DNA of 64,000 nt from an uncultured delta proteobacterium (lineage in GTDB: Bacteria; Myxococcota_A; Polyangia; Polyangiales; Polyangiaceae): contig CAWAIF010000003.1 of assembly GCA_963782055.1 (NCBI GenBank), positions 4,832,001 to 4,896,000 on the forward strand, given 5' to 3'. Below the pieces are notes generated by a model that had not been told where the DNA came from, searched no databases, and saw nothing but the letters and a program-made list of their open reading frames with translations. The position numbers and the translations under genes were made by a program. Below are positions 3,979 through 56,066 of the stretch, piece after piece. The first letter of the stretch is position 1. Every line of letters starts with the position of its first letter.

Positions 3979-4004
3979 CGGAGTGCAAGCATGCTTGCAC
4001 TCCG
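3979..4004. promoter_or_regulatory. Perfect 26-bp palindrome, candidate operator
   Basis: CGGAGTGCAAGCA/TGCTTGCACTCCG, intergenic, ~120 bp upstream of the 3858 start. Confidence 0.7.
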
Positions 4005-7394: not shown

Positions 7395-7577
7395 GCCGGG
7401 CGTACCCGAGCGGCGGCGGCGATCTACCAGGATGGGGCGCCCCATGCAATGGATCGGAGGTAAAAGCGCGGAAACATTGGTCGAACCGGGATGGGCCCGC
7501 GGGGCGGGGCCGCCGGCCGCACGGACCGCGAGCATGCTGACAGTGGGGCCTCCGACGCCCCGGTCACCGCGTCCCGC

Positions 7578-9298: not shown

Positions 9299-9526
9299 GC
9301 CGCGACGCTAAATCACCACCGCAGATTCGGCTACGCAGATCGTGAGGCCGCGAGCCTCGCTGCCAGGCCTCGGAGCGGGAGCATGCGAGCGGTCGCACGG
9401 TCCACGACGACCTCGGCAGGGACGCGCCATCCCGGCCGGGTCGCCACAATCGAGCCGGCCCTTCGTCACTCATCGAAGAGTCACGAGGGGCTTGCCCCAT
9501 CGCCCCACCTGTGCGATGGCGCGCCG

Positions 9527-14283: not shown

Positions 14284-14862
14284 ATGCGCTCGCTCCACGC
14301 TCGTGGCCTCCTCGTCGGGGTCGCGCTCGTCCTCGTCGCCGCTTGCAGCGGCGACGGCGTCTCCTCAAAGGACCAGGCCAAGACGGCGTACCTCAGCCTG
14401 GACACTTCCATCGACCGGGCCATCAACCTTGGCTTCGCCGGGTTCAACGCGGCGCAGAGCGCCAACATCCCCACCCAGAGCGCCAGCGGCGACGCCTCCG
14501 GGACGATGAGCATCGACGGGCAGGTGGACCAGGGCGCCTCGGCGAACAAGACGATGCGCCTCAAGGAGACGCTCACCGGCTACTCCGACGACGGCAAGAT
14601 CGTCAACACGACGACGCAGCCGGCGGAGCTGGACATGGACCTCAAGGGCATCCCGAACGGGACGATGACCGGCACCCTCGCCGGCACCTACGCGATGGAG
14701 GGCGACCTGAAGGGGAACGTGACGCTCGACCTCACCCTCTCCAGCGCCCTGCAGCCGGATGCGCAGGACGCGAGCAAGGTGGTACGCAAGCCGGGAACCA
14801 CGCGGATCCAGGGCAAGGCGACCTCCGGGTCCGCCGTCTTCGACATCGACATCACGCGCTGA
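14284..14862 (+). CDS. Hypothetical lipoprotein (beta-rich)
   Basis: Lipobox LVAAC; host-like codon usage. Confidence 0.75.
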   Translation: MRSLHARGLLVGVALVLVAACSGDGVSSKDQAKTAYLSLDTSIDRAINLGFAGFNAAQSANIPTQSASGDASGTMSIDGQVDQGASANKTMRLKETLTGYSDDGKIVNTTTQPAELDMDLKGIPNGTMTGTLAGTYAMEGDLKGNVTLDLTLSSALQPDAQDASKVVRKPGTTRIQGKATSGSAVFDIDITR

Positions 14863-15415
14863 CCGCACACCACGGCGGGCGGGCACGTGCGCGGCGCACG
14901 CGCTCCTCCTCGCGGAGCACCCAGAACCCGCCTTCGGTGAGCCTGTCGAGTGTGGCCTCGTCGCCGAACCCGACGCGAATGCGCATGCACAGCGCCTCCA
15001 GGTGCCTGCGGGCGCGTACGCACGCGCGGGCGGCGGGCCAGCGGCGCTCTCCCGGCGCGAGCGCGCCATCGAGCGCGAGCCCCACGTGCCCGACGAGCAC
15101 CAGCCCGAAGAACGCGCGACGCACGCTGCGGCGGCCGTCGGGCGTGAGCGCGACGATGCAGTCGCGCCCATCGCGCCGCCGCTTGACGAGGCCAAGCTGC
15201 TCGAGGGATCGCATCATGCGGCTGATGGTGGAGCGGGCGACGCCGAGTCCGCGGCGAAGCTGGCTTTGCAGGGTGACGGTGCGCGTGCCGAGCCGGTAGA
15301 GCGCGTCGAGCAGATCGAAGCGCGCCGCCGTCAGGCCCACCGCCCGGAGCGCCCGCCGCGTCAGCCTGAGCGTGGCGTAGTACGCCCGCTTGATGGTGAA
15401 GAAGAGAGGGTCCAT
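14852..15415 (-). CDS. MarR-like winged-helix protein, copy 1
   Basis: GLTAARFDLL..., QSQLRRGLGVARSTISRMMRSLEQLGLVKR, VALTPDGR; paralog at 55260-55856. Confidence 0.85.
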   Translation of the reverse strand: MDPLFFTIKRAYYATLRLTRRALRAVGLTAARFDLLDALYRLGTRTVTLQSQLRRGLGVARSTISRMMRSLEQLGLVKRRRDGRDCIVALTPDGRRSVRRAFFGLVLVGHVGLALDGALAPGERRWPAARACVRARRHLEALCMRIRVGFGDEATLDRLTEGGFWVLREEERVRRARARPPWCAVSA

Positions 15416-15428
15416 TCCCCAGCCCAAC

Positions 15429-15497
15429 GCACCCCCCATGCCACCCCCCCCTCCCCAGAATTCCCGCGAAACGTCGCATTGCAAGCGCGCTAGCAAT
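15429..15497 (-). promoter_or_regulatory. Conserved upstream block of MarR-like copy 1: sigma54-type promoter, hairpin and dyad
   Basis: TGGCATGGGGGGTGC (15443-15429); GCGA-AACG-TCGC (15466-15477); ATTGCAAGCGCGCTAGCAAT (15478-15497); all positionally conserved in copy 2. Confidence 0.65.
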
Positions 15498-15508
15498 TGG
15501 ACGTTTGG

Positions 15509-15610
15509 TGTCCCCGGACAGGGAGGGGGGACAGAGGGGACAGGGGGGGACAGGGAGGCTGGGGGCGAGGAGAGAGGGTGTGGGGACAGGGGACACGGGC
15601 AACGGGGGGG
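15509..15610 (+). repeat. G-rich degenerate GGACA(G) direct-repeat array, copy 1
   Basis: GGACA at 15516, 15529, 15538, 15548, 15584, 15591, embedded in G runs. Confidence 0.8.
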
Positions 15611-15743: not shown

Positions 15744-15757
15744 GTGCATGGGGGGGG

Positions 15758-16588
15758 ATGCGTGCTTCTACCCTCTTCGCGCTGCTGGCGGCGGGCGTCG
15801 GTCTGGTCGTCGCCTGCGGCTCCGACGGCACCGGGCCGGGCTCGGACTACTGCTCGCAGAATCCTTGCGGCAACAACCGGCAGTGTGATCCAAGCCTGGG
15901 TTGCGTCGAGTGCACCGGCGACTCCCAATGTCCCGCGAGCGCGAAGTTCTGTGTGCAGGGGAGCTGTGGAGCGTGCCGTACGTCCTCCGACTGCGGCGCG
16001 GGCGCCCCGGCCTGCTGGCCCTCCGACCACCAGTGCCACGCCGCATGCACGTCCAACGGCGACTGCCCACCGCAGGCAAAGATCTGCGACGCGCAGACGG
16101 GCATCTGTGTGGGGTGCAACGTCAACGCCGACTGCACCGACGGGCCGCGCGTCATCTGCGATCCGCAATCGTCACAGTGCGTGCAGTGCACGCAGAGCTC
16201 GGATTGCCCCGCCTCGGCGCCGAAGTGCTTCGCCGCGCGGGGCGATTGCGTCCAGTGCTTCTCCAACGGCGACTGCAGCGGCACCACGCCCGTCTGCGAC
16301 ACGCAGGAGTTCCGCTGCCGGTCCGGCTGCACCGGCGACGGCGACTGCCCCACGTCCGCGCCCAAGTGCGACACCGGGCGCCAGCGCTGCGTGCAGTGCC
16401 TGTCCGCCGGCGACTGCTCCGGCAGCACGCCGCTCTGCAACACCCAGGGCCAGTGCACGCCATGCCTCGCCGACACCGACTGCGCCGCCCCGACGCCCTT
16501 CTGCCGCAACGCCGAATCGTGCGTGGAGTGCCGCACGCCCAACGACTGCGCACAAGGGATGAAGTGCCAGAACGGCACGTGTAACTGA
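15758..16588 (+). CDS. Cys-rich repeat lipoprotein
   Basis: Lipobox VVAC; about ten CVxC-x4-C-x5-6-C repeats. Confidence 0.85.
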   Translation: MRASTLFALLAAGVGLVVACGSDGTGPGSDYCSQNPCGNNRQCDPSLGCVECTGDSQCPASAKFCVQGSCGACRTSSDCGAGAPACWPSDHQCHAACTSNGDCPPQAKICDAQTGICVGCNVNADCTDGPRVICDPQSSQCVQCTQSSDCPASAPKCFAARGDCVQCFSNGDCSGTTPVCDTQEFRCRSGCTGDGDCPTSAPKCDTGRQRCVQCLSAGDCSGSTPLCNTQGQCTPCLADTDCAAPTPFCRNAESCVECRTPNDCAQGMKCQNGTCN

Positions 16589-17944: not shown

Positions 17945-18116
17945 GGGCCGAAACGTCGGATTGGGAGCATGCTAGCGGTCGGGTGAAGGCGGGACCCCGC
18001 CCGGATCGCGCGGGGGCGCCCGGCCCCGCCCGGCGCGCCGGCACCGGGGCGCCGACCAATCGCAGCCGATTCCACCGAGGGGAGACGGATGAGGCGTCGC
18101 GGGTTATAGAGTCGCC

Positions 18117-55259: not shown

Positions 55260-55856
55260 TCACCCGGAGGGCTCCTCCCCGGCGTAGGCGCCGTCGATCC
55301 GCCGTTGCTGCCGTTCCCGCTGGTTCCGTGCGCGGCGCGCGCGGTCCTCCGCGCGCCAGAGCCAGAAGCCTCCCTCGCTGCGCCGGTCGAGGGTCGCTTC
55401 GTCCCCGAAACCAAGCCGGATACGCAAGCAGAGCGCCTCCAGGTGTCTGCGCGCGCGTGCGCAGGCGCGAGCCGCCGGCCACCGCCGCTCGCCCGGCGCA
55501 AGGGTGCCGTCGAGCGCGAGCCCGACGTGCCCCACGAGCACCAGCCCAAAGAACGCGCGACGGACGCGCCGGCGGCCCTCCGGCGTGAGAGCGACGGCGC
55601 ACTCGCGCCCCACGCGGCGCCGCTCGACGAGCCCCAGTCGTTCCAGCGAGCGCATCATGACGCTGATGGTAGAGCGCGCGACGCCGAGCCCGCGCCGAAG
55701 CTGGCTCTGGAAGTGAACGACACCCGTCCCCAGACGGTAAAGGGCGTCGAGCAGATCGAACCGAGCCGCAGTGAGCCCCATCGCTGCGAGCGCCCGCCGC
55801 GTGAGGCGCAGCGTCGCGTAATAGGCCCGCTTGATCGTGAAGAACACAGGATCCAT
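55260..55856 (-). CDS. MarR-like winged-helix protein, copy 2
   Basis: About 26 differences in the first 177 aa versus 14852-15415 (manual count). Confidence 0.85.
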   Translation of the reverse strand: MDPVFFTIKRAYYATLRLTRRALAAMGLTAARFDLLDALYRLGTGVVHFQSQLRRGLGVARSTISVMMRSLERLGLVERRRVGRECAVALTPEGRRRVRRAFFGLVLVGHVGLALDGTLAPGERRWPAARACARARRHLEALCLRIRLGFGDEATLDRRSEGGFWLWRAEDRARRARNQRERQQRRIDGAYAGEEPSG

Positions 55857-55869
55857 CCCACCCCCCACA

Positions 55870-55938
55870 GCACACCTCGTGCCACCCCCCCCTCCCTCCA
55901 GATTCCAGGCGAAACGTCGCCGTGAAAGCGTACTTGCG
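55870..55938 (-). promoter_or_regulatory. Conserved upstream block of MarR-like copy 2: sigma54-type promoter, hairpin and dyad
   Basis: TGGCACGAGGTGTGC (55884-55870); GGCGA-AACG-TCGCC (55908-55921); TGAAAGCGTACTTGCG (55923-55938). Confidence 0.65.
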
Positions 55939-55950
55939 GTTCGACGCTGG

Positions 55951-56066
55951 GTGTCCGGGACGGGGAGAGGGGACAGGGGGGACAGGCGGGGAACGGGGGC
56001 CGGACAGGCGGGGAACGGCGGGGAACAGGGCCTGGACAGGCGGGTGAGGAGTGCGGGCGAGGACAC
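55951..56066 (+). repeat. G-rich degenerate GGAC(A)/GGAAC direct-repeat array, copy 2
   Basis: Units at 55958, 55971, 55980, 55990, 56002, 56012, 56022, 56034 and 56061. Confidence 0.8.

Follow-up and report, generated by a model that had tools for sequence, protein, structure and literature searches.

The stretch of DNA analysed here, 64,000 nucleotides long and referred to as the window, contains two copies of a unit that combines a MarR-fold gene with its 5′ DNA, both on the minus strand. Copy 1 (14852..15553, ~700 bp) belongs to subfamily A and is truncated at its 3′ end. Its ORF (14852..15415) encodes a winged-helix protein of 187 aa with Arg at position 66 and overlaps the last 11 nt of a convergent gene, in agreement with a preliminary description in which this copy ran into the last codons of its neighbour. 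Upstream of the ORF lie a sigma54-type -24/-12 box (GG-N10-GC, a consensus match only; 15428..15443, minus strand, the GG being 27 nt 5′ of the ATG), a long dyad (15469..15506) whose 22-bp core (15477-15498) is the predicted operator with a core of the C·G type, and a TGTCC/GGACA palindrome with direct half-site repeats (15508..15553, minus strand), which is the predicted host enhancer and the fixed 5′ end of the unit. Copy 2 (55260..55985, ~730 bp), also of subfamily A, is full length. It has a MarR-fold ORF of 198 aa (55260..55856) with Val66 and a predicted long C-terminal helix (161-192), a sigma54-type box (55869..55884, minus strand, likewise a consensus match), a dyad (55912..55949) with a degenerate operator core (55920-55941), and predicted host enhancer repeats (55951..55985, minus strand); degenerate repeats continue beyond the unit to ~56040. 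A gene for a cysteine-rich repeat protein without Pfam match (15749-16588, plus strand) lies divergent from copy 1.

The two ORFs share 151 of 177 residues, as expected from the ~85% identity reported initially, and the proposed purifying selection with many synonymous differences is reflected in a dN of 0.092 and a dS of 0.83 for the pair. Both proteins match Pfam MarR_2 above its cut-off of 27 bits (43 and 40 bits; E 4e-11 and 4.9e-10), which confirms their assignment as MarR-like winged-helix proteins. The neighbourhoods of the two copies are indeed unrelated, and the noted preference of copy 2 for T/A-ending codons corresponds to a GC3 of 0.844 versus a genome median of 0.957, within the lowest ~1%.

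The unit was introduced as a two-copy cassette, but the 7.58-Mb genome holds 58 family loci (subfamilies A 43, B 7, C 6 and D 2), one ordinary MarR match having been excluded from this count. All follow the same plan: ~130 bp of 5′ DNA with TGTCC/GGACA repeats, a 22-bp palindrome and a sigma54-type box, followed by a MarR-fold ORF, with the 3′ end of the unit falling near the stop codon. Most A copies have a homologous tail of ~20 residues (total ~198 aa), and the near-identical B, C and D copies have common sequence up to the stop codon. The abrupt loss of similarity after ...RRAR, with unrelated ends beyond it, is peculiar to copy 1, because this copy is truncated. Few copies are damaged: frameshifts affect two of the 43 A copies and a truncation affects one B copy, sequencing error being possible. 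The copies of this genome form genome-specific clades, each a single branch, of 41 A, 6 B, 6 C and 2 D members. All six congeners searched contain the family, with 8-19 matches each, a few of which are ordinary MarR genes. Among 150 other genomes of the family Polyangiaceae, for which 24 candidates were scored per genome, 20 have 1 to 18 matches each. A profile search gave 431 clusters at E below 1e-30, and the titled records with the family are from Polyangiaceae, Polyangiales, Myxococcales, Deltaproteobacteria and uncultured delta proteobacteria, which makes a myxobacterial host probable. Homologs in other species and genera carry the same flank. Together with the empty orthologous sites described below, this bears out the view of a self-contained multi-copy unit and, overall, the initial reading of the unit is supported. 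A search of mostly open-access literature, in main texts, retrieved no published account, in line with the initial failure to match a described family. We conclude that the unit is real and widespread and represents a type of dispersed gene unit that has apparently not been described. The link to competence, the covariation of a protein residue with the operator and the solo operators, all presented below, go beyond the preliminary description.

The homology in the 5′ DNA exists and has the order that was described; its length, given as ~200 bp, is ~125-140 bp in most copies (range 121-165). The repeats and a consensus GG-N10-GC box, located 26-40 nt before the start codon, are present in 58/58 units, which upholds the sigma54-type promoter as a prediction. 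Other elements had been divided too finely. The GCGA-AACG-TCGC sequence is not kept across copies as a hairpin of its own and forms the outer arm of a single long dyad. The 16-bp dyad is real, but constitutes the core of that long dyad and not a separate element. One repeated element accounts for both the G-rich array and the TGTCC/GGAC inversion, which are its half-sites.

An AlphaFold model of the protein of copy 2 (pLDDT 89.9) displays a MarR fold with a long C-terminal helix. Its best matches are all MarR proteins, with a TM-score of 0.80 over the target for E. coli MarR (5H3R). Structure prediction, which had been suggested as a check, thus returned a MarR fold without a catalytic domain, and the window protein matched no NCBIfam family above cut-off. 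Searches with Pfam, the fold and NCBIfam detected no transposase or catalytic domain in the unit. A hidden catalytic domain was considered and rejected, as the fold search, NCBIfam and the ESM Atlas returned only MarR.

The 22-bp palindrome is situated between the 5′ repeats and the sigma54-type box, and a dyad was found in 149 of the 150 copies scored. The core of the palindrome covaries with residue 66, a position in the predicted recognition helix that we take to be equivalent to R73 of E. coli MarR. Glu or Gln66 is accompanied by G·C at ±2 in 63 copies and Arg or Lys66 by C·G in 68; one copy is discordant. The remainder consists of eight Arg/Lys/Glu copies with other letters, nine Val copies and one whose site is too weak; the eight copies with other letters and the discordant ones appear to be mis-centred. 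On a tree of residue 66 and core there are ~4 switches, only two of them on starred branches (sign test p 0.5); the operator caller used with this tree mis-centred several sites, and the figures given here are those of the recount of 150 copies. Arginine-guanine and glutamate-cytosine contacts are established chemistry and fit the observed pairing. MarR dimers read palindromes through the recognition helix, according to the accessible parts of PMC11602129 and PMC5487221. Since the palindrome core tracks residue 66, the protein likely binds its own operator. We consider it very probable from this covariation that a MarR-fold dimer binds the palindrome of its own promoter, and that residue 66 reads the base pair at ±2; the protein would probably act as an autorepressor. 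Judged on sequence, self-recognition of the unit is well supported.

The combination of TGTCC/GGACA array and sigma54-type box is not restricted to the units. It is also present 5′ of comM (followed by recA, assigned by motif only), ssb, radC, comEC, a small gene upstream of comEA, genes for an XPB-like helicase and a HEPN protein, six Uma2 genes and three IS91-like transposase genes. There are 11 such palindromes, versus 0-1 for each of five control pentamers. In relatives whose units contain TGGCC/GGCCA, the same variant is found at comM in 5/5 and at comEC in 3/4, the comEC of the fourth having no match in the 1.5 kb examined. At dprA and the genes immediately preceding it, the 200 bp of 5′ sequence showed no enhancer. 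The repeats precede DNA-uptake and recombination genes and vary from one host species to the next, which makes it likely that they are a competence enhancer of the host, the array being the probable site bound by a host sigma54 activator of a competence-type regulon. By motif, about 27 proteins are candidates for this activator. Having the same cis-element as these DNA-uptake and recombination genes, the unit is probably expressed together with comEA, comEC, comM-recA, ssb and radC. Operators of the family occur at 2/19 promoters of the regulon here (3% expected) and at 0/9 comEC/comM loci of relatives; the idea that the family is a conserved repressor of competence genes was rejected on these counts. 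Strong operators adjoin the enhancers of comEC (21.7 bits) and the XPB-like helicase gene (27.9 bits).

The predicted regulon includes loci at C3:985106, 966551, 1251437, 1344354 and 2434200 and at C2:357458, and the literature searched gave no description of a sigma54-dependent competence regulon of this kind. Several further observations were made at enhancer-bearing loci. The small protein encoded directly 5′ of comEA under the enhancer (C3:966306-966551, minus strand) has no Pfam match; from its context we guess that it is a candidate single-strand DNA-binding competence protein. The six Uma2 nuclease genes (C3:6895000-6913000 and C3:1711916) each have a competence-type enhancer, and five of them are interspersed among unrelated genes within 14 kb. 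This island also contains the HEPN gene with its enhancer and a WYL-domain regulator. A tandem array of a ~42-bp unit lies just 5′ of the ssb enhancer (C3 near 1344000).

The genomic sites of the units were compared among species using copies from five congeners (60 of 72 matches taken, of which one was an ordinary MarR gene, giving 59 copies). Forty-two of these 59 copies have two-sided synteny in the present genome, and 39 of the 42 sites are unoccupied here. At 18 of these 39 loci (13 distinct sites) both flanks are close and the length difference, 524-731 bp, is about that of one unit. In the reverse test, two A sites of this genome were each empty in one relative, with gaps of 40 versus 1048 bp and ~200 versus 1300 bp (empty versus filled); other relatives carry unrelated genes at these sites. 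Twenty orthologous regions of relatives gave no family match, and relatives have unrelated DNA at the C3_2021208 site. Around copies 1 and 2 of the window, none of the five relatives retains unbroken synteny, so that there is no clean empty site. Aligned genes of the relatives are only about 65-88% identical, and because of this distance gain and loss are not polarised directly. The other three syntenic copies occupy a site after mglA (recognised by eye) that is common with a B copy here: this gap contains a Glu-type copy in three relatives and a recent B copy in this genome (C2:422293), which would be explained by either reuse of the site or replacement.

Units are located in convergent gaps in 28/58 cases versus 19% of gene pairs (p 3e-7, with orientations from a simple in-house gene caller). 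Their neighbours are unrelated, the upstream gene being co-oriented in 41/58 and the downstream gene convergent in 40/58, and an adjacent regulated target operon as in the MarR family is absent. Another MAG contains seven close copies in unrelated flanks, with a single 5′ boundary at the repeats and nested 3′ ends that range from the stop codon to ~110 bp past it. The B copies and those of this other MAG are 97-100% alike from the enhancer to the stop codon and have unrelated flanks. On this comparative evidence mobility of the unit is well supported. The preliminary description left open whether the unit is a mobile element or a regulatory module, and both are partly true: the unit acts as an insertion, and its flank is regulatory and does not represent transposon ends. 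One DNA sequencing run with a 0.07 share gave no joint across the unit and was uninformative. Nothing scored above the Rfam gathering threshold in the 53 kb searched for RNA families at three loci with three units. The units are dispersed and carry a predicted promoter, and in these respects the unit seems unlike an integron cassette.

The coding sequences of the copies are under purifying selection. For the 41 intact A copies (820 pairs) the median dN/dS is 0.23; codons differ by 30 synonymous and 16 nonsynonymous changes in six young pairs, and by 30 and 3, respectively, in five B copies. Several young A pairs are near-identical from -125 to ~+505, yet diverge in their homologous tails, and compatibility between neighbouring sites exceeds that expected by chance (0/1000 permutations). 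A near-identical body combined with divergent tails indicates that copies overwrite each other; since near-identity then reflects conversion, it does not by itself date an insertion.

The reading we favour, although it falls just short of being probable, is that the unit is a selfish cassette without transposase that is induced in competence and likely copied by the DNA-uptake and recombination machinery of the host. The unit would be switched on by the predicted sigma54 competence enhancer of the host, the encoded dimer would repress its own promoter from the operator between enhancer and -24 box, and the unit would be copied into new gaps when recombination proteins of the host act on DNA that is taken up or displaced. 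New copies may arise by illegitimate integration in competent cells, old ones being overwritten later by gene conversion, a route that we propose tentatively.

Operator-like palindromes also occur without a unit. Two intergenic ones are present in the window (3981..4002, 32.2 bits, and 17959..17980, 21.9 bits, 2.4 kb from copy 1), and broader matrices indicate two weaker sites (7524..7545 and 9373..9394). Genome-wide, the Arg-type operator matrix at 16 bits gave 114 sites versus 2-25 for six shuffled matrices. Of these sites 77 lie away from units, and 71 of the 77 are intergenic, mostly 5′ of genes. Broader matrices, one of them partly trained on matches of the Arg-type matrix, gave 172 sites, or 151 once neighbours were merged. 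For the Glu-type 14-mer, counts were 36-83 in five congeners and zero here and in congener G003, with a single match in one of 18 genomes of other genera. Solo operators are enriched near units, both here (shift test p 0.003-0.02) and in relatives (12 versus 3.1 expected). B-type solos adjoin B copies (9 versus 1.8 expected, p 0.0006). The 44 solos within 8 kb of a unit are more similar to the operator of that nearest unit than to others (22.1 versus 19.1 of 38, p 9e-5), also within the subfamily (21.4, p 0.017), although the sites entering these local-matching tests are clustered and non-independent. Counter to a strictly local explanation, no solo lies within 6 kb of 37/58 units, and young units have one no more often than old ones (10/25 versus 11/33). 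Empty sites of relatives are likewise not enriched near the solos of this genome (12/30 versus 8.9, p 0.16), and in 3/3 relatives further operators are lacking within 4 kb of the unit at the mglA site. The intergenic region C3:4235038-4235261, between divergent genes, contains three tandem 101-bp repeats, each with a full A-type operator dyad. The possibility that the solos form a sigma54 regulon was discarded, boxes being present at 3/71 versus 2.9%.

Binding of the protein to phased solo operators located on both sides of a copy, at distances of a few kb, might hinder replacement by incoming empty alleles and, speculatively, thereby place selection on each copy; we regard this part of the proposal as doubtful. 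It would relate to the proposal that transformation cures chromosomes of inserts, which elements resist in several ways, according to the part of PMC12378983 that was available.

An alternative is that the protein is a regulator selected by the host, a competence-induced global repressor or chromosome organiser acting on ~150 intergenic sites, with copies kept for dosage and scattered as a by-product of recombination in competent cells. The intergenic location of 71/77 solos, some of which precede housekeeping genes (rpsA, rplM and carA, recognised by eye), would fit such a role, as would the strong operators beside the comEC and XPB-like helicase enhancers and the scarcity of broken copies (two frameshifts among 43 A). 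Also, 4/56 mapped solos of G001 and G004 (three distinct sites; these two genomes hold many solos in common) have a counterpart with switched core in this genome, versus 58/4176 gaps; switched-core solos at orthologous positions far from units fit a host function. Finally, the distances between paired solos cluster at 69-72, 80-82 and 101-104 bp (mean phase 0.79 turn; Rayleigh p 0.002), but relatives show no significant phasing of this kind (p 0.08-0.27). Against a host regulator, 130 of the 150 family genomes searched have no match, the sites of the units are species-specific, and the genes next to solos have no evident common function and no excess of sigma54 boxes. Moreover, few regulon promoters have an operator, here or in relatives, and a diffusible protein does not easily explain that solos match the nearest copy. 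We judge this alternative to be rather unlikely.

The ends of the unit bear on the manner of its movement. End similarity is at chance level for both terminal inverted repeats (p 0.90 here, 0.15 in relatives) and direct repeats (p 0.94 for 54 copies and 0.61 for 48 copies). Hence the target-site duplications that had been suggested as a check were not detected, nor were any seen by eye at recent copies; old copies may have lost theirs since. In relatives 29/48 copies have a stop triplet no more than 12 nt from the 5′ boundary of the unit, versus 7/48 for a control window; here 2/54 have one. In rolling-circle elements of the IS91/ISCR type one end is fixed and the other variable, and the target is not duplicated. 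The fixed 5′ end, variable 3′ end and lack of duplication of the units would accordingly fit a non-autonomous passenger that is moved in trans by a dedicated enzyme, for example by the enhancer-bearing IS91-like Y2 transposases in a one-ended rolling-circle reaction from the fixed 5′ end. Three IS91-like genes here bear the enhancer, and Y2 transposases are present in 5/6 congeners. However, G005 has 10-12 units and no Y2 match, no enhancer precedes the Y1 and Y2 loci checked in relatives, and the motif that ends Y2 elements was not seen at units among the matches listed. In addition, the fixed end of IS91-like elements is 3′ of the gene, a polarity opposite to that of the units, whose fixed end can be accounted for by a host site found in front of single-copy genes as well. 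A Y1/RAYT transposase is absent from this genome (0 PF01797 matches). Mobilisation in trans is thus, in our opinion, quite unlikely. Tyrosine recombinases, found by motif, were rejected as movers, having no enhancer array.

The same searches yielded observations on the Y2 elements themselves. The ~70-140 bp motif at their end is repeated 20 or more times at intervals of 0.4-18 kb, mostly on one strand, in C3:4.41-4.49 Mb, 5.20-5.27 Mb, 2.73-2.74 Mb and 6.18-6.33 Mb. These regions resemble repeat-delimited gene-cassette arrays headed by a Y2 transposase, of which no description was found in the literature searched, and they contain nine near-identical genes for tyrosine recombinases, several of which adjoin Y2 genes. 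Congeners G001, G002 and G006 have 15-31 divergent Y1-transposase-like genes per genome; this genome has none.

That the copies are old paralogs at ancestral sites, subject to differential loss and homogenised by conversion without ongoing insertion, is very improbable: conversion is evident and some sites are common among relatives, one also with this genome, but an ancestor with roughly a hundred filled sites would be required, genome-specific clades occupy unshared sites, and the B and other-MAG copies are nearly identical between unrelated flanks.

The unit can be placed next to known systems. With the MarR family (E. coli MarR, HucR/PecS/MftR) it shares the fold, the MarR_2 domain and a palindrome in the promoter of its own gene, the latter as given in the accessible part of PMC5487221, which also counts about 7 unrelated MarR paralogs in an average genome. 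It differs in its 58 related copies, the lack of a linked target operon, its species-specific insertion sites, and an extra C-terminal RxxFGD motif and long helix. The toxTA operon of Haemophilus influenzae is a competence-regulated two-gene operon under CRP-S that was acquired horizontally and is patchily distributed (PMC6957337, as far as the accessible part of this source goes). The unit is likewise a patchy, acquired element under a competence promoter of the host, here a predicted one; unlike toxTA as described there, it has a single DNA-binding gene, tens of dispersed copies, a predicted sigma54 enhancer and no toxin partner. The Uma2 (PF05685) expansion in the same genome also consists of dispersed single-gene paralogs without transposase, six of which have the same enhancer and box, but the protein of the unit lacks the nuclease domain, has its own operator and is present in many more copies. 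By analogy, and within what that part of the toxTA source covers, the unit would work most like toxTA and this Uma2 expansion.

Other mobile elements are less similar. IS91/ISCR elements resemble the unit in pairing a fixed with a variable end and in leaving the target unduplicated, and local IS91-like genes use the same enhancer; the unit, however, has no Y2 transposase, no ori-end motif and the opposite polarity. The transposase, terminal inverted repeats and target-site duplication of DDE-type IS elements, MITEs and transporter IS elements were not detected in the unit, nor was the Y1 HUH transposase of IS200/IS605 elements and REPtrons in this genome. The solos are similar to REP/BIME sequences in being intergenic palindromes of 20-40 bp, some in short arrays and often edged by CGTC here, whereas the gene linked to them encodes a winged-helix binder with a residue that covaries with the palindrome, CGTC is not kept in relatives, and solos favour upstream and not convergent gaps; for REP sequences and REPtrons we relied on the accessible part of PMC3733652.

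The mobile elements known to us encode a transposase, integrase or reverse transcriptase or make use of one from elsewhere. In the present case a gene resembling that of a transcription factor has reached 58 copies with no such enzyme in sight. It is conceivable, though on balance we think it improbable, that the unit represents a new class of selfish DNA, an enzyme-less cassette of binder plus operator within the competence regulon that is copied by the transformation machinery, tunes or seeds nearby operators and shields its locus; protein and operator would then switch specificity together, and ~150 sites would follow the dominant copy type. If the transformation machinery of the host is the mover, the unit would directly exemplify the spread of a selfish gene by competence, while the literature, as represented by the accessible part of PMC12378983, mainly describes competence removing such genes. 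The switch of one residue and one base pair over 150 natural copies constitutes a ready test set for protein-DNA co-evolution and for the genome-wide turnover of binding sites. In uncultured myxobacteria-like genomes, a predicted sigma54-dependent competence regulon emerges from the shared enhancer.
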